Shown here one piece after another: positions 42,493-49,839 of a stretch of 64,000 nucleotides of DNA. Within the stretch, counting starts at the first letter, position 1. Each line of letters starts with the position of its first letter. The notes beneath the pieces are model-generated. The model was not told the DNA's origin. It was given only the letters and a program-made list of their open reading frames with translations, and did not search any database. The stretch is from positions 448,001 to 512,000 of the forward strand of contig CBDDDZ010000002.1 of assembly GCA_965226795.1 (NCBI GenBank), written 5' to 3'. The translations under genes and the position numbers were made by a program. The DNA comes from Candidatus Latescibacterota bacterium. GTDB taxonomy: Bacteria; Latescibacterota; UBA2968; GCA-2709665.

Positions 42493-45321
42493 TCAGGATC
42501 CGATTTTGCCAACCTCTGCCCTCCCGTATTTCCGTAGGATATCCTTGATGTCCTCAGGGCTATAGGAAACGTCGGAAACCCACCGCCCGAAGCCCCCGTG
42601 CTGGTTGACGGCATGGGTCCACTGTTCCAATGCACGGCGCTTGGCGCGGCTCTGTTCGTCCGGCTGTCCCTTCGTCTCCAGAACCAGTAGATTCCCTGAC
42701 TTCAGACGGATGATGAAGTCAGGACGGTACTTTCGGACCACTCCCCTATAAACGTAAAGCACCTCAAATCCCAGGTGGTCGTTCTTGACCCATGCATCAA
42801 CTATGGGGTTGTGGTCTAACTCGAACGCTTCCGACGCTTCCCACGTGCTGTCGTACACGCACATGTTAATGTGGCTACGCTCAGAGACGTGGCACGGCTT
42901 GCCGGTGTACCAGGTCGCCACGTTGGCAGTCGAACGGATAGGATGGTCACGGTCAAAGACAGGCTCAAGCCTCTCCGTGTTCTCGATACGTACAGCGTCC
43001 CAAAGGTGCTGCACCACCTTTGTCATATTGAGAGTGATGATGAGCCGCCGAGCAGTGTCGTCCTGGTAGAACAGTGGTGGCGTGATATCAAGTCGATCAG
43101 TTAAGAGAAACTGCTCGACAAGCTTCACCAACTGGGCAATGAGAGACTCCCTGCTGCCCGACCAGGAAGTCTGCATCTGGTCGTAGACATCCCGTGCCGT
43201 TTCGAAGACGATTTTCTGTGTTCTGTACTCTCTCGCTAGCGCTTCCAGGTCAATGCTGGTCACCTTGGAGACGTCGGGTTTCCCGTCCACTATGGGAGCA
43301 AGTTCGGCGACCTGAGCCGTTTCGCTGGCATTGAGGTGAAGAAACTCGACTCGTCCCCAATCCAGAGAAAGGCGTGGCCGGTATACGTGCTCGATGCGAA
43401 TGACGTTGGGCCATTTGATTTCAAACGCAGCTTTTTCGGTCACCGGCTCAATGGCAGTTTTTGGACTTGGAGGTTTCGGCGCTACGCTGCCGTCTGACTC
43501 GTGAGGCAGGAAGGTGAAGGGCACCCCAAATATGTTTACGTACTCCGGCTCGAAAAGGCCGGTCTTGTCGTTCACCTCGTAAGTCGTACGGCGAAGGCCC
43601 CGGCCCACCACCTGCTCACACAGCAATTGGCTGGTGAACGCTCGGAGTCCCATAATGTGGGTAACGGTCTTGGCGTCCCAGCCCTCGGAGAGCATCCCCA
43701 CCGAGATGACGTTCTGTATCTTCTCGCCGGGCTGCCCCGGTCGCCCGACGGTATCCACCATCCTCCTGAGTTGCTCAGCCCTCTGGTCTGCGGTAAGCCT
43801 CAATGACTCAACTCCATTTCCAGATTTGTTTTTATCGTCCGCTTTGATCTGAGCTATCGGCTCCTCTGACTCCTCAGCCCGCTTGAGTACGCCGGAGTCA
43901 ATGTGCAGGGTCTGCTTCTCATTGCAGAGTTCGTCGATCAAGATACGCTTACGGTCAAAGGCGTGCTTGATTCGTGCCGCCGTCTCGGTCCGATTGGCAA
44001 CGGTGATCATCACTGGCGGTGTTTCTTGCTTTGATTTTCGCCACTCTTTGGCAGCCTCTCTCCAGTCGTAGCCAAGCAGGTAATACCCATTGGTCACCAG
44101 ATCAGGTAGTGGCTCGTGGGGCTGCGCACGCCGATTCAAGTCGTCTTTCACATCCGCGTCGTTATATATGTGGTAAAGACGGGACTTGTAGGTCCTTGCA
44201 TCGGGCACTGCATCGTCGCGTATTACTACACGGGGTGTCTTTACCAAGCCCGATTCAATGGCGTCGTTCAGTCCAAAGTCGCTCACGATCCAGTTGAAAA
44301 GGGCCTCATCTGAGCTTTTCTTGCCTGATGGTGCAAAGGGTGTGGCAGAGAAGTCGTAGCAGGTGAGAATGTTGCGCGCACGGTGAATCCGGTCTAATCC
44401 TCCCACCCACTTGGTCGCTTCCTCAATATCGGCCTTGGCGACGCCCTTGACCTTCGACTCGGCCGGAACACGCCAGGCGTGGTGCGCTTCGTCGTTGACG
44501 GCGAGCAGGTTTCGGGCTCCGGCCATCTCGCCCAGCACCTTGCGTACATAGGCCTCGTCGCTCTTGGCTCCTCGTTTGTCCACGCTACGTTTTCTGGCAA
44601 TCTGTTCATCTGTCTCCCAGTTGAGGGCATGCCAGTTGCGTACCATTACCTTTCCTTGGCGGAGTCGATCCAATAAAGGTGAGGGCACGATATGGAAAGC
44701 CTCGTAGTAGTTTTCGGGATTGGATGGTTCCAGGACCGCGAGGCGGCTTCTGACGGTGAGACCGGGGGCAACGACCAGCACATTCTTGGCAAAGCGGTTG
44801 TCCTGGGGATAGGCGACCTTGTTGAGAATGTGCCACGCGATCACCATAGCCATAACTACTGTTTTACCGGTTCCCGTCGCCATCTTGGCACATAACCGGC
44901 GGAACTCGCCGCCGTCACCGGGAATCTCTATCCCCACCTTTTCACTATCGGGCGCTTCAGTCAGCCAAATCAGCGTCGCTACGGCCTCGAGTTGGCAGAA
45001 GAAGAACCGCCGGTTCTCGAACTCTTCCGAGTCCGTCCAATGCTCCAAAAGGCGTTTGGTGATTGCTGTCACGCCAGGATAGCTGGCTTCTCGCCATGAC
45101 TTTACACGTGGCCGAATCTGATTGACCAGAGGGATTTCAACGAACACACCCGGGTCGTCGAAGGTCTTGGAGTCCGCCGACGCAATGAGGTAACCCGCAG
45201 ACCGACGACCCTCCGATCGTGAGAACGTCCGCCTCTCCCGGTTATAGCTCCAGTGCTCCGCTGGTTCAGCATAAGGCCCATTGATGATGAGCCGGTCTAT
45301 TGCGGCCTGTTCTTCAACCAT
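42493..45321 (-). CDS. res: Type III restriction-modification Res subunit (SF2 helicase + PD-(D/E)xK nuclease)
   Basis: KMATGTGKT, DEAHH, SATP, EGWD, QVVGRGLRR, YRPDF..LETKG. Confidence 0.92.
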   Translation of the reverse strand: MVEEQAAIDRLIINGPYAEPAEHWSYNRERRTFSRSEGRRSAGYLIASADSKTFDDPGVFVEIPLVNQIRPRVKSWREASYPGVTAITKRLLEHWTDSEEFENRRFFFCQLEAVATLIWLTEAPDSEKVGIEIPGDGGEFRRLCAKMATGTGKTVVMAMVIAWHILNKVAYPQDNRFAKNVLVVAPGLTVRSRLAVLEPSNPENYYEAFHIVPSPLLDRLRQGKVMVRNWHALNWETDEQIARKRSVDKRGAKSDEAYVRKVLGEMAGARNLLAVNDEAHHAWRVPAESKVKGVAKADIEEATKWVGGLDRIHRARNILTCYDFSATPFAPSGKKSSDEALFNWIVSDFGLNDAIESGLVKTPRVVIRDDAVPDARTYKSRLYHIYNDADVKDDLNRRAQPHEPLPDLVTNGYYLLGYDWREAAKEWRKSKQETPPVMITVANRTETAARIKHAFDRKRILIDELCNEKQTLHIDSGVLKRAEESEEPIAQIKADDKNKSGNGVESLRLTADQRAEQLRRMVDTVGRPGQPGEKIQNVISVGMLSEGWDAKTVTHIMGLRAFTSQLLCEQVVGRGLRRTTYEVNDKTGLFEPEYVNIFGVPFTFLPHESDGSVAPKPPSPKTAIEPVTEKAAFEIKWPNVIRIEHVYRPRLSLDWGRVEFLHLNASETAQVAELAPIVDGKPDVSKVTSIDLEALAREYRTQKIVFETARDVYDQMQTSWSGSRESLIAQLVKLVEQFLLTDRLDITPPLFYQDDTARRLIITLNMTKVVQHLWDAVRIENTERLEPVFDRDHPIRSTANVATWYTGKPCHVSERSHINMCVYDSTWEASEAFELDHNPIVDAWVKNDHLGFEVLYVYRGVVRKYRPDFIIRLKSGNLLVLETKGQPDEQSRAKRRALEQWTHAVNQHGGFGRWVSDVSYSPEDIKDILRKYGRAEVGKIGS

Positions 45322-45377: not shown

Positions 45378-45911
45378 CTAAATCCTATCGTGGGCTTCTT
45401 GTGAGGTAAGGATTTCCGCGCCTTGGGGGCGCAGTTTCTTGGAATTCCTTAATAGACGCTGACGTCTTGTGGGGTCTCCGCGTTCCCTTTCAGGACCAAT
45501 AACGATGTGGACCTCGTCATTGGAAATAAGTACCGTCCCTTGGGATAAAGCGACATAGACGAATATACAGTCAAGGGCTTCAGACTTTTCAATGATGACC
45601 TTTCGTATAGCCTTCATCAGCGTGTCAGTCCAATTGATCGTAATTCTCAAACGAGGCGCATCTCGTATCCAATAACGCAGAATGTATACCTCGTTTCGCA
45701 AGTCGTCAGTATGTCGAATTATGGGTCCGATACGATCGTTATATTCTCCTGAGATGCGTTTTCCATCATCAATTAGCAGTGCGACGCGTTGCGCCATGAG
45801 ATGTACCAACAGCGTATTTATGTGTCCATCGACGTTGATTTGTGGATTCAGCAGATGCTCGAAGATGTTGGTGTCTATGCTCAAAGCATCCCGAAACGTT
45901 GGGGTCGTCAT
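45378..45911 (-). CDS. PIN-like domain protein (putative RNase)
   Basis: PIN acidic pattern: SIDTN, SGEY, LDCIFVYVA, LISND; ATGA overlap with upstream ATPase. Confidence 0.65.
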   Translation of the reverse strand: MTTPTFRDALSIDTNIFEHLLNPQINVDGHINTLLVHLMAQRVALLIDDGKRISGEYNDRIGPIIRHTDDLRNEVYILRYWIRDAPRLRITINWTDTLMKAIRKVIIEKSEALDCIFVYVALSQGTVLISNDEVHIVIGPERERGDPTRRQRLLRNSKKLRPQGAEILTSQEAHDRI

Positions 45912-47227
45912 TTCCCTGCCCCAAGCTGCAGACCTTCTAAAATGTCTGCTCCGAAGAATTCCATTGGCAAACCGGCTTCCATCGAACCATCCTCGTTGAC
46001 GTCCAGATTCTTGACGATGGGCATGTTGTGGTTGCTATCGTCGAAGGTAAAGAAAGCCACCGATACGTCATCCGGTGAGAGCTCTCCATTGGCTATCACA
46101 CGTCGCAACCTGAGAAGCACGTTGCTACTATGGGTTTCTATAACTGAACCCACATTCCGCCGCTTCCAGAGATCGGCAAAGAAGCTACCCAGTTCCAGTT
46201 GCGCTGTGGGGTGAAGCTGAGCTTCCGGCTGCTCCACCATCAACGTAGTATAGCGAGGCATGATAACGCCTTGAACAAAGATGGGAAGGCATTGGCTGAC
46301 GCCAAATCCGTAGTCAGCGATATGTACATCCGCCTCGGTAGTAATGTTCTTCGCGAAAGCTTGACTAACGTATCCTGATAAAGCCTTGAAATTGACTTTG
46401 TCTATACCTGCCACGCTTCTAAGGTACGGCACTATGAACTCGTATGCTTCCTGGTTCTCAGATGTTATTTTATGCAGATGTGCCAAAGCAAATTCACCCA
46501 TTGTGCCCACATTATCAACAGGGGGAGGAGATACGACAGCAACTCGCTGCGGTTCAGTTCTAACTGGGAGAAGATGCCGTAGTGAATCGATTTGATGCTT
46601 TAGCGTACCAATCACTTGCAACTCTATAGCATATCGCAAGAAAGACGTCGTACGTTGTTCCATCAGTTCAATTAACTGTTCGTGTGATCCGGCGAAGTCA
46701 TCTGGACTTGGGAATGGTTCCGCCAACTCAGGGTCAGACGCATGTTGTCCAAAGACTGAATCATCTAATATCTTCGAGTCAATCCGAAGGAGGGTTTCAC
46801 CTGAGGTCTCATCGGACAAACAGAAAGATGCTTCGCCGATGCTAGCCTTTCTGCCATACGAAACGCTGGCGCTGGCCCTGTAGACGAGCCTGTTGCCGTC
46901 AAAGTCTTCAGGTAAGTCTAGATCCGTCAATAGCGTCTTGTTTGGCCGGATGTTCGTATTCTTCGCTGCTAGCTCAAACCTGAGACTCCTTTTCCTCGTC
47001 ACCGTGTTCTTCAGCGCCGAGAATACTCCCAAATTGACCTTATCGCCTTCTGCGGTGAGGAACTGAGACCTGGCGGAGTCCATCGACTGCTGCAACATAA
47101 GCAGAAACTTTATGATCGACGACTTCCCTGAACTATTGCGGCCTATGAGGACAGTAATGGGTCGGAACCGAATCTTGACTTCATCGTCGAAAACTCTAAA
47201 GTTTGAGAGCTTTAGGACTGTTAGCAT
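45908..47227 (-). CDS. ABC-type (AAA_15/AAA_21-like) ATPase with DUF3696-like C-terminus
   Basis: LSNFRVF, Walker A GRNSSGKS, signature variant GFGVSQ, Walker B/D-loop MVEQPEAQLHP, H-loop IETHS; ATG 47227 after GAGGGA. Confidence 0.88.
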   Translation of the reverse strand: MLTVLKLSNFRVFDDEVKIRFRPITVLIGRNSSGKSSIIKFLLMLQQSMDSARSQFLTAEGDKVNLGVFSALKNTVTRKRSLRFELAAKNTNIRPNKTLLTDLDLPEDFDGNRLVYRASASVSYGRKASIGEASFCLSDETSGETLLRIDSKILDDSVFGQHASDPELAEPFPSPDDFAGSHEQLIELMEQRTTSFLRYAIELQVIGTLKHQIDSLRHLLPVRTEPQRVAVVSPPPVDNVGTMGEFALAHLHKITSENQEAYEFIVPYLRSVAGIDKVNFKALSGYVSQAFAKNITTEADVHIADYGFGVSQCLPIFVQGVIMPRYTTLMVEQPEAQLHPTAQLELGSFFADLWKRRNVGSVIETHSSNVLLRLRRVIANGELSPDDVSVAFFTFDDSNHNMPIVKNLDVNEDGSMEAGLPMEFFGADILEGLQLGAGK

Positions 47228-47238
47228 TACTATTTCCC

Positions 47239-49839
47239 TCAGACTGATATGATGCGAAGGCTCTCGATGCCTCGGTCGTCGACTATTTTGACGGCGATGC
47301 GCTGGTTGTCTCCCAGTTCGAAGGGCAGAGAGACCGTTCCACGGTACGCTACGATTAGATCTCGGTCTATCTCCGCCTTGAGATTCTTCGCAAGGCGCGC
47401 CCACCCGTCGTTCTGGCCGCCCATTGGGAAGAACACTTGACGAGGAAACAAGCTACGGCCGTCATAGTCCGAGTCCAGCATCCACATCGCGATTTTATCT
47501 TCTCCGCCCGATTCTACGTCGCCAGTCTTAGTATTGTAATAGTCGAATCCCTGTACTGCTATTTGCCACATCCCAGTGTTCTGACCCTTGCCAATTTGAT
47601 GCACGAAGACGTCCGGCTGCCCGATGAGCCAGAAGCTCTCATTGCTGACCCGTTTGCGCTTCAGATCCCCAGTCAGCAGGTCGGCATTCATCTGCGCCTT
47701 CAGCAGGGCGATGCCCGGCCATTTGGTCTCGTCGATATCCTTGGCCGCTTCGGGGTCGAATTGGAAGGCGGCGAAGACGATGACCCTGGGGCTCGGCCTA
47801 AGCGTTTCGGCTTCCTGGAGGGCATGGTTCACCTGCCGTTGCTCCAATGGCGCGTGATCGGGTCCGAAAGACACGACAATACGCTGGGCTGCTTGCGCCG
47901 AACCTTCCCGTACCGTGTCAGCGCCGTCCTTGTTGGGCAGGCTCTCGCCGTCCGCGTGAAGGTAGCGATAGCCCGGCAAGGGTTCCAAACGTGCAAAGCG
48001 GATGAACTGCCTCGCCTTGCCCCGGATCCCCGTCCTCAAAAGCTCGTCCCGCCAGTCCGCCTGGCGCAGCGTTTCGCCGGAGCGGGCCACCGTGTCATCG
48101 GCGGGCAGAGGCTCGGCGTCGTCAACGTCGTCGATGGGCTTCACCGCCGGGGCAGGCACGGCCTCGACGCTGAAGGGGCCGGTGACCCGCTTCTTGCCGG
48201 TATCCACCGATGGCTGGTCACACAGCGTCTCCTGGGGGGCGTGTCGGGCTATGGCCGCGTCGATCTCGGCTTGGCTCAGGCCTTCCTTGATTTCCGGGTT
48301 GTTGGCGATAGAGCCCAGAGTAATGTGTGGTACGGTCTTGTAGTTGAAGCCGCTGCCCACCCCCTCGGTAGGATGCGCTAGCTTGTAGTAGTTGAAGAAG
48401 GCGGTCATCAGCCGCTGCTTGGCAAGAGCTACGGCCACGCGGGAGGTGTCGCAGGTGATCCACCGGCGCCCCCACTGCTCGGCGACGTAGGCGGTGGTGC
48501 CGGAGCCGCAGGTCGGGTCGAACACCAGGTCACCGGGGTCGGTGGTCATAAGGAGGCACCGCTCAATGACTTTAGATGAAGTCTGTACCGCAAAGGTCTT
48601 ACCGATAGCCCCTTGGGTGTCCGTCCATTGATTGGTGATCTGCATTACGGGATAATCGTCAGCAAAGAAAACATACCCCGGCACGTGCGTTAGCCAACGG
48701 ACACGTCTAGCTGCGAGTAGGCGCTCCATTCCCTGTGGCGTCGTCTTCCAACTTGTCGCCGGATTGGGATATGCCCGCCGCCCGTCCAAATAGAATTCGA
48801 AATGGCACGATTCAGTGTATCCAGTCGCCATTAAGTCTGTGAGTCTGAAATAACGAACAGAGTCGTTCTCGGATTCGGAAACTTCGGACGCTTTTACCAC
48901 GCGACCGTCTTTCAAGAGTGCGTTAGAAAACTGCGTATTCTCTCCGTAATCTCGGGCGCTGAATAGTCGTCGAAACTTCACCTTTCCTTTGTTTTTTGCG
49001 TACCAGACCAGGGAATCAGCTATGTTGGGCAAGTATGCGGCGTTTAGGGGAATTTTCGTCCTAAATGAAATTTGGGACATAAATTGCCCAGGGCCAAATA
49101 GCTCATCCATAAGTGCCCGAACAAGATGAACATTCTCATCTCCTATCTGCACAAACACACTTCCGCTCTCGGTCAGCAACTCCCGGGCCAGCAGCAGGCG
49201 GTCCCGCAGGTAGGACAGGTAAGAGTGGATGCCCAGTTCCCAGGTGTCTCGGAAGGCCTTGATGGTCTCCGGCTCCTGGGTCAGGTCTTCATCCCGGCCA
49301 TCTCGAACGTTGCGCCGGTTGACGAAGGGCTGGAAGTTGGAGCCGTACCGGATGCCGTAGGGCGGGTCGATGTAGACCATCTGCACCTTGCCCGCCATGC
49401 CCTCTTTTTCCAGAAGGCTGTTCATCACCAGCAGGCTGTCGCCAGCCACCAGGCGGTTGGTCCAGTTGTGGCGGTGCTGGTAGAACTCGATGGCGCTGCG
49501 GACCGGCGGGTTCTCTTCCGGCAGTTCGAACAGACTGCCCTGTACGGGGCCACAATTGTCGTCTTGCTTGCGGGCGGCCTCGATAATGGTGCGGGGGTCG
49601 ATGCGTTCGTGAACGTGGAGCGACACCGTGGGCACCGCGAAGGAGGTGTGCTCGGCCTTCCCCGACCACTGCAGCTGCGGGTCCAGGTGAGGGTCATAGG
49701 CATAGGTCTTCCGCCCCGTCTCCGAATCGGTCTCAGGCGTAACCAAGCCGACAGGCGGGTTGTTCAGCCGCTCCTTGTCCCGGTGGTCATAGGACTCAAT
49801 AGGGCGTTTGGATCGGCGCGTGCGTCGTCGTGCAATCAT
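47239..49839 (-). CDS. mod: Type III restriction-modification Mod subunit (N6-adenine DNA methyltransferase)
   Basis: YIDPPY (motif IV), variable TRD, FDPTCGSGTT (motif I), C-terminal VKIVDDRGIE. Confidence 0.93.
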   Translation of the reverse strand: MIARRRTRRSKRPIESYDHRDKERLNNPPVGLVTPETDSETGRKTYAYDPHLDPQLQWSGKAEHTSFAVPTVSLHVHERIDPRTIIEAARKQDDNCGPVQGSLFELPEENPPVRSAIEFYQHRHNWTNRLVAGDSLLVMNSLLEKEGMAGKVQMVYIDPPYGIRYGSNFQPFVNRRNVRDGRDEDLTQEPETIKAFRDTWELGIHSYLSYLRDRLLLARELLTESGSVFVQIGDENVHLVRALMDELFGPGQFMSQISFRTKIPLNAAYLPNIADSLVWYAKNKGKVKFRRLFSARDYGENTQFSNALLKDGRVVKASEVSESENDSVRYFRLTDLMATGYTESCHFEFYLDGRRAYPNPATSWKTTPQGMERLLAARRVRWLTHVPGYVFFADDYPVMQITNQWTDTQGAIGKTFAVQTSSKVIERCLLMTTDPGDLVFDPTCGSGTTAYVAEQWGRRWITCDTSRVAVALAKQRLMTAFFNYYKLAHPTEGVGSGFNYKTVPHITLGSIANNPEIKEGLSQAEIDAAIARHAPQETLCDQPSVDTGKKRVTGPFSVEAVPAPAVKPIDDVDDAEPLPADDTVARSGETLRQADWRDELLRTGIRGKARQFIRFARLEPLPGYRYLHADGESLPNKDGADTVREGSAQAAQRIVVSFGPDHAPLEQRQVNHALQEAETLRPSPRVIVFAAFQFDPEAAKDIDETKWPGIALLKAQMNADLLTGDLKRKRVSNESFWLIGQPDVFVHQIGKGQNTGMWQIAVQGFDYYNTKTGDVESGGEDKIAMWMLDSDYDGRSLFPRQVFFPMGGQNDGWARLAKNLKAEIDRDLIVAYRGTVSLPFELGDNQRIAVKIVDDRGIESLRIISV

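Follow-up and report, generated by a model that had tools for sequence, protein, structure and literature searches.

An ABC ATPase-PIN gene pair nested between mod and res of a Type III restriction-modification system

In a 64,000-nt stretch of a Candidatus Latescibacterota genome (contig CBDDDZ010000002.1, positions 448,001 to 512,000; hereafter the window), a Type III restriction-modification (R-M) system's mod and res genes enclose two further genes, encoding an ABC ATPase and a small PIN-fold protein. On balance, we regard this pair as having probably resided for a long time in the slot between mod and res in one Type III family. Reasoning by analogy with related defence systems, we lean towards a self-contained ATPase-caged RNase, whose trigger would be sensed by the ATPase and which would constitute a resident second layer behind restriction.

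Gene content and composition of the locus

All four genes are located on the minus strand in the order mod, ATPase, PIN and res. The mod gene (47239..49839) encodes an 866-aa N6-adenine methyltransferase, which matches PADLOC MTase_III (1.9e-155) and Pfam N6_N4_Mtase (3.2e-30) and carries the motifs IDPPY and DPTCGSGTT; its low-GC, variable middle part is presumed to be the target-recognition region. The 942-aa product of res (42493..45321), a Type III-like helicase-nuclease, reached 1133 bits with NCBIfam NF046055 (BPTD_3080 family; cut-off 800), matched Pfam ResIII (5.2e-8) and carries MATGTGKT, DEAH, SATP, QVVGRGLR and PD...ETK. With an N6-methyltransferase as Mod and a Res above the cut-off, the host system belongs to the BPTD_3080 family of Type III R-M systems.

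The inserted genes encode a 439-aa Rad50/SMC-like ABC ATPase (45908..47227, minus strand), identified by Pfam, PADLOC, motifs and fold model, and a 177-aa PIN-fold protein (45378..45911, minus strand), a predicted ribonuclease according to its model, fold matches and conserved acidic site. The gene coordinates agree with the spacings given in a first-pass annotation of the sequence: the ATPase gene starts 11 nt after mod and overlaps the PIN gene by 4 nt (ATGA), which is separated from res by 56 nt. Judged from this spacing, mod, ATPase, PIN and res would be co-transcribed. A scan of the insert for internal promoters and terminators returned counts at chance level. Since relatives begin at an equivalent MLT/MLK, the ATG at 47227 was preferred as start of the ATPase gene, which ends at 45908, over the GTG at 47404, where the mechanically assigned ORF begins and from which it runs into mod.

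As first described, 26 of the 60 nucleotides at 46381-46440 are G or C, and the insert (ATPase, 48.9%; PIN, 46.8%) is lower in GC than the conserved parts of mod (61%). It ranges about 10 points under the genome (58.3%; res, 56.0%), and the third-position GC of the ATPase (0.53) and PIN (0.49) genes compares with 0.76-0.78 in conserved mod. A mobile element bounded by ends of its own was rejected, since no meaningful direct or inverted repeats were found around the insert, and the window's genome contains no second copy of the pair. Downstream of res, a gene for a 309-aa P-loop GTPase-like protein (42196-41267, minus strand; MMR_HSR1, 3e-4; GC 46%) overlaps one for a 161-aa membrane protein (41270-40785, minus strand; GC 44%). 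Both genes, possibly a second defence cargo, are missing from the same site in G008, a genome of the same genus.

The ATPase matches Pfam AAA_15 and AAA_21 and the PADLOC models NsnB (8.8e-51), PDC-M55A (1.1e-42), HEC-03B (9.7e-40) and AriA (3.1e-25). Its fold model (pLDDT 89) retrieved retron/Septu PtuA (1.6e-11) and then Rad50 (6.3e-11) as best Foldseek matches, a sequence search of solved structures matched only OLD (6P74, 1e-7), and the helical insert of the model is short, consisting of one helix (182-214). The ATPase motifs had been described as intact, which holds for Walker A (GRNSSGKS, residues 29-36), the signature (DYGFGVSQ, 305-312) and the H-loop (ETHS, 364-367), but not for Walker B (332-335), which reads hhhh-EQPE instead of DE. 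The Gln of EQPE occupies the position of the catalytic Glu in ABC ATPases. Among 127 ATPase homologs Walker B reads EQPE in 123 cases and EEPE in the other four, and Walker A, the signature G[FY]GV[SG]Q and ETHS are conserved. Since plasmid HEC-03 ATPases have the same EQPE (and GFGVSQ) motifs, this deviation characterises the wider group and does not reflect decay. The designation DUF3696-like is fair but weak: the C-terminal tail GLPMEFFG (419-426) is conserved and DUF3696-like and distant plasmid relatives carry this annotation, but the query has no Pfam DUF3696 match, and only 7 of 58 family members show one at E<=0.1 (best 1.5e-3).

The assignment of the small protein to the PIN fold was confirmed by its model (pLDDT 93), which matched VapC21 best (5sv2; Z 10.1, rmsd 3.6, 127 aligned residues). 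About 37 of the first 40 structural-match rows were PIN-domain proteins, and the best Foldseek match was a Shigella VapC (E 3.5e-3). The four acidic positions reported as intact are indeed conserved in the 157 full-length sequences among 184 retrieved relatives (D13 in 156, E56 in 148, D114 in 156 and D132 in 150), as are D48 (157) and N131 (154). Based on the model, the protein is predicted to be a VapC-like ribonuclease. A search among 1.84 billion cluster representatives detected 195 relatives at E<=0.001 and 149 at 1e-10, so that the family comprises 195 or more clusters at 50% identity. The nearest clusters in the ESM Atlas are unnamed, with PIN clusters at 0.92-0.93. The 177-aa query alone matched no Pfam, NCBIfam or relevant PADLOC model, which implies that the family escapes current defence-system models.

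Occurrence of the pair and of other cargo between mod and res

Scans for PIN patterns yielded 42 genome loci, 13 metagenome loci and one plasmid among 72,556; as they rest on short exact peptide patterns, they provide a partial, context-blind sample of the family. No phage-borne copy was found among 119 pattern matches in viral contigs. The 62 PIN loci formed 47 clusters at 80% identity, and 45 remained after removal of the window and of L121, which had been picked by its res. The conserved pairing expected from the single locus was observed in 44 of these 45 clusters, in which the ATPase gene directly precedes the PIN gene, while the remaining one ends at a contig edge. In 39 of the 45 clusters the pair occupies the mod-res slot, a tie to the R-M operon far stronger than one stretch of DNA could have revealed. 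Mod precedes and res follows in 33 of these, and the other six have res after the pair and a contig end on the upstream side. Nested copies occur in eight phyla (Chloroflexota, Latescibacterota, Planctomycetota, Chlorobiota, Nitrospirota, Thermodesulfobacteriota, Pseudomonadota and Cyanobacteriota), and the slot preference persists across PIN identities down to 30-35%. The whole four-gene unit was also found on a plasmid of a cultured cyanobacterium, Planktothrix agardhii (AP017994.1).

The six remaining clusters comprise one in which the pair lies directly upstream of mod without being nested (L015, overlapping L142), one ambiguous case and four unlinked copies (L027, L028, L035 and L040). 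No mod-end scars were seen upstream of the unlinked copies. In L027 and L028 the pair is intact away from mod and res, and the L028 genome (9.3 Mb, one chromosome record) gave no match to res. The PIN gene is broken in the two others, by a frameshift in L035 and a stop in L040, compared to about 5 of the 39 nested copies with a lesion in either gene; given the small numbers and possible assembly errors, this suggests only weakly that the pair degenerates outside the R-M context.

A control search for the ATPase in 168 and 201 genomes detected, beyond the window and two known loci, only distant ATPases (E above 1e-42). The 30 top rows of the first genome set, together with every one of the 11 from the second, resulted in 38 sister loci, none of which (0/38) had mod or res in flanks reaching about 1 kb beyond the pair. 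A slot fidelity of 39/45 against 0/38 lies far above what a free passenger would lead one to expect and counts against the self-contained reading preferred here.

Some copies are decayed: in L041 (L041:7971-9662) the N-terminal half of PIN runs in frame into a truncated res, in L038 PIN is split by an insertion sequence, and in L036 mod, ATPase and PIN carry frameshifts. Moreover, an operon of multiubiquitin, E2 family E, JAB+ThiF and DUF6527 genes, resembling bacterial ubiquitination-like defence operons, follows PIN in 11 of the 45 clusters and accompanies the pair in two unlinked copies. It was Pfam-checked in L017 (L017:8528-10952) and L023 (L023:8514-11417) and recognised by size and sequence in L010, L015, L021, L024, L025, L027, L030, L034, L035 and L042. 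We take such operons to be those named Bub or Bil.

Viewed from the res side, the same slot is more promiscuous. Searches with res across 1,572 genome slots yielded 65 strong matches; 60 loci were fetched after exclusion of the window and four centre genomes, and 49 of them included both ends of the junction. Five of these 49 res-picked junctions contain the pair, 15 are empty and 29 hold other genes. The empty junctions rule out that the pair is an obligate third and fourth R-M subunit. From 36 of 98 junction and neighbouring ORFs that were scanned, the other cargo was identified as TIR, OLD, other ABC ATPase pairs, Lamassu-like, AAA-protease, SIR2 and KilA-N genes, together with toxin-antitoxin pairs of VapC-type, nucleotidyltransferase-HepT and DUF4258/DUF2283. 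In G008, mod and res DNA is 88% identical to that of the window and located at the same chromosomal site, but a VapBC-type pair is present instead, the swap spanning from the mod end to the res start. There, the C-terminus of Mod continues in frame into a short antitoxin-like peptide, and the vapC gene comes next (L076:9390-9966). The mod-res slot is thus a hotspot for interchangeable cargo. In the res tree, pair-bearing rows are mixed among others, with at least 14 changes among 73 rows. Duplicate fragments of the mod end or the res start were present in three junctions, in line with growth of the slot by recombination between operon variants.

For the 27 complete loci, tree-distance correlations were 0.66 for mod-res, 0.48 for PIN-mod, 0.47 for ATPase-res, 0.39 for ATPase-mod, 0.32 for ATPase-PIN and 0.27 for PIN-res. 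These values were matched by 0-24 of 2000 shuffles, and by none of the 2000 for ATPase-res, ATPase-mod and PIN-mod. The mod, res, ATPase and PIN trees share shallow clades and conflict in deep splits: 8-9 of 13 well-supported ATPase splits conflicted with res or mod, compared to 7 of 17 between mod and res. This pattern shows block transfer with reshuffling, in which function and linkage are not separable.

Relation to HEC-03 and other ABC ATPase systems

The first-pass annotation did not recognise the combination as a named system. This no longer stands, since HEC-03 is already such a pair. According to Payne et al. (10.1101/2024.01.29.577857), it consists of an ABC ATPase and a VapC-like PIN protein, both genes being required, was discovered through its embedding in DNA-modification systems, defends E. 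coli without R-M and lowers plaquing by orders of magnitude; that survey covered Hma, BREX, DISARM and Type I R-M, with Type III outside it. Like HEC-03, our pair has the ATPase gene first and the PIN gene second, a homologous ATPase with the EQPE Walker B, and a PIN profile that aligns with that of HEC-03 (92%, E 5.8e-7, 81 columns; three sequences on the HEC-03 side). However, two ATPase trees (84 and 37 rows) place this ATPase in a clade of its own (12 rows, support 100/100), distinct from the HEC-03 clade (11 rows, 100/99), both being fully supported amid several other ATPase+PIN-like lineages; sisterhood of the two clades was neither established nor rejected (p-AU 0.32). The identity to HEC-03 ATPases is about 28-34%, and the HEC-03 ATPase model scored 135 bits compared to 367-445 for plasmid HEC-03. 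The HEC-03 PIN model gave no match to this PIN at E<=0.1, in contrast to 84-95 bits for plasmid HEC-03 PINs and 1e-24 to 1e-42 for true members, and weakly matched 14 of 150 members of the PIN family (best 2.4e-5). (In PADLOC-DB, HEC-03B designates the ATPase and HEC-03A the PIN protein, the reverse of Payne et al.) Separate ATPase clades and the mismatch of the PIN model rule out HEC-03 in the strict sense; since the HEC-03 PIN model fails on this PIN, no existing two-gene model covers both genes. The ABC ATPase+PIN architecture was already known, and this is a separate lineage tied, unlike HEC-03, to the Type III slot: none of 20 fetched HEC-03-type loci had mod or res in its flanks. A full-text literature search found no ATPase-PIN lineage tied to Type III R-M, although Krishnan et al. 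2020 or the supplements of Payne et al. may list it.

In three genomes of the window's genus (L173, L183 and L185), HEC-03 proper is located directly before a Type I hsdR, which implies that the wider group, too, tends towards embedding. On Azotobacter, Rhodococcus and Aeromonas plasmids (L097, L098 and L099) a gene of the RNA ligase family directly follows HEC-03, suggesting an RNA-repair partner and pointing to RNA damage in this cousin lineage. In two or more additional lineages, related ATPases are paired with small PIN-looking proteins, which start with LVIDA-V and C-I-DAN (L192, L197, L198, L199, L203 and L204; L195, L205, L208 and L084). These partners matched no PADLOC model at 1e-8.

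Menshen provides the best single model match of the ATPase, NsnB. As described for Menshen (PMC12065111), NsnB likewise has the GxG signature, an altered Walker B and a DUF3696-like tail, the system includes a partner with PIN-like fold, and some Menshen operons adjoin Type III R-M. In contrast to Menshen, no NsnA (ParB/DUF262) gene precedes the ATPase, which begins only 11 nt after mod, and the distance from the mod stop to the ATPase stop is 1261-1420 nt in 26 of 27 loci. Furthermore, NsnC is described there as an inactive PIN with a C-terminal effector, unlike the single 177-aa PIN with complete acidic site found here. The missing NsnA and the single, active-site-complete PIN rule out Menshen.

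Further systems with similar components were compared and rejected. PrrC in EcoprrI (Type IC R-M) also combines an ABC ATPase with an RNase and is embedded in one R-M type. Its anticodon nuclease, which we take to be HEPN-type, is part of one polypeptide in a Type I host, whereas unfused ATPase and PIN genes, a PIN fold and a Type III context exclude this identity for the pair. Dependence of PrrC on its R-M has been demonstrated; for the ATPase-PIN pair it is hypothetical. PARIS resembles the pair in using an ABC ATPase as antitoxin and sensor with a separate RNase; it senses anti-restriction proteins directly, AriA caging and then releasing the nuclease (PMC10802264). Unlike the PIN partner, AriB is a TOPRIM nuclease, and neither the locus nor the PIN relatives matched the AriB model, which rules out PARIS. 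PDC-M55, a PADLOC candidate with a matching ATPase model, was excluded because its 350-aa partner PDC-M55B (L100) does not match this PIN, and RemAIN because it consists of a HEPN nuclease and an immunity protein (PMC13043305).

Proposed function and alternative readings

By analogy to HEC-03, PARIS and Menshen, an ATPase dimer would cage the PIN protein and keep the predicted RNase inactive. The Menshen geometry, in which NsnB dimers are predicted to grip the PIN-like domain via two DUF3696 tails (PMC12065111), may serve as best template for the complex. A phage product, most likely a protein, for example an anti-restriction DNA mimic, would be sensed by the ATPase itself; the released PIN would then cut host RNA (tRNA or rRNA, as VapC does), and translation would stop, resulting in abortive infection or growth arrest. 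Complex formation, caging, RNA target and trigger are all suggested by analogy in this scheme. A trigger sensed by the ATPase is favoured because intact copies exist away from R-M and the HEC-03 cousin is autonomous. The Gln at the usual catalytic position, read from the sequence, questions a release driven by hydrolysis: in PARIS, AriA requires the Walker B Glu393, and the E393Q exchange is reported to abolish both hydrolysis and defence (PMC10802264), whereas this ATPase family has Gln. The pair may stay in the slot because it borrows the promoter of the operon and spreads through recombination within mod and res, with the restriction layer and the ATPase-PIN layer selected together.

An alternative that we consider doubtful, yet the most serious of the competing ones, is a PrrC-type guard, an idea raised in the first-pass annotation, in which the ATPase-PIN complex is bound to or monitors Mod2Res and is silent until the Type III enzyme is inhibited by a phage protein. 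The pair would then be the Type III counterpart of PrrC, guarding BPTD_3080 Mod-Res and shutting down translation, with an ATPase that would bind ATP and hardly hydrolyse it, a version we likewise hold to be rather unlikely. It draws on the occupancy of the slot across eight phyla against its absence from all sister loci, and like PrrC, which Payne et al. single out as almost always embedded (10.1101/2024.01.29.577857), the pair is almost only embedded in one R-M type. In addition, Ocr inhibits Type III enzymes and is able to cause cell death via one (10.1101/2023.04.06.535777; review PMC12707154), PIN lesions occur in two of the four unlinked copies, and the ATPase-res, ATPase-mod and PIN-mod correlations (0.39-0.48) compare with 0.66 for mod-res. 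However, linkage by itself yields co-divergence, most of the well-supported splits in the ATPase tree disagree with res or mod, and many unrelated genes occupy the same slot. Moreover, 44 of 49 junctions of this R-M lack the pair, intact copies live without R-M (L027, L028), and the closest tested cousin, HEC-03, functions in R-M-free E. coli.

The frequent toxin-antitoxin pairs in the slot and the low GC of the insert, pointing to foreign origin, would also suit an addiction module or neutral passenger, with the ATPase as mere antitoxin, the pair stabilising the mobile R-M cassette and no anti-phage role. We consider this improbable, as ABC ATPases of this kind (439 aa, nucleotide motifs conserved) serve as sensors in tested defence systems and the HEC-03 cousin reduces plaquing so strongly. 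Even less probable in our view is accessory DNA-end processing, with a Rad50-like ATPase and a PIN exonuclease finishing Res-cut DNA and leaving the cell unharmed. It agrees with slot fidelity, with Rad50 as second match in the ATPase fold search and with the exonuclease activity ascribed to certain PIN domains; against it, this PIN is nearest to VapC RNases, the one-helix insert is unlike the DNA-clamping arms of Rad50, and the RNA ligase gene after HEC-03 on three plasmids suggests RNA damage.

The pair, which we prefer to read as an ATPase-caged RNase backing up restriction as a second layer, bears on a question raised by Payne et al.: whether nesting of defence within defence reflects a sink in the genome, joint transfer or genuine back-up wiring. 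For this question the lineage offers an unusually clean test, as it almost never leaves one slot while its tested cousin HEC-03 is free-living, and near-identical R-M loci with and without the pair are available. If the guard reading were true, the pair would be the first case of two genes dedicated to guarding a Type III system.
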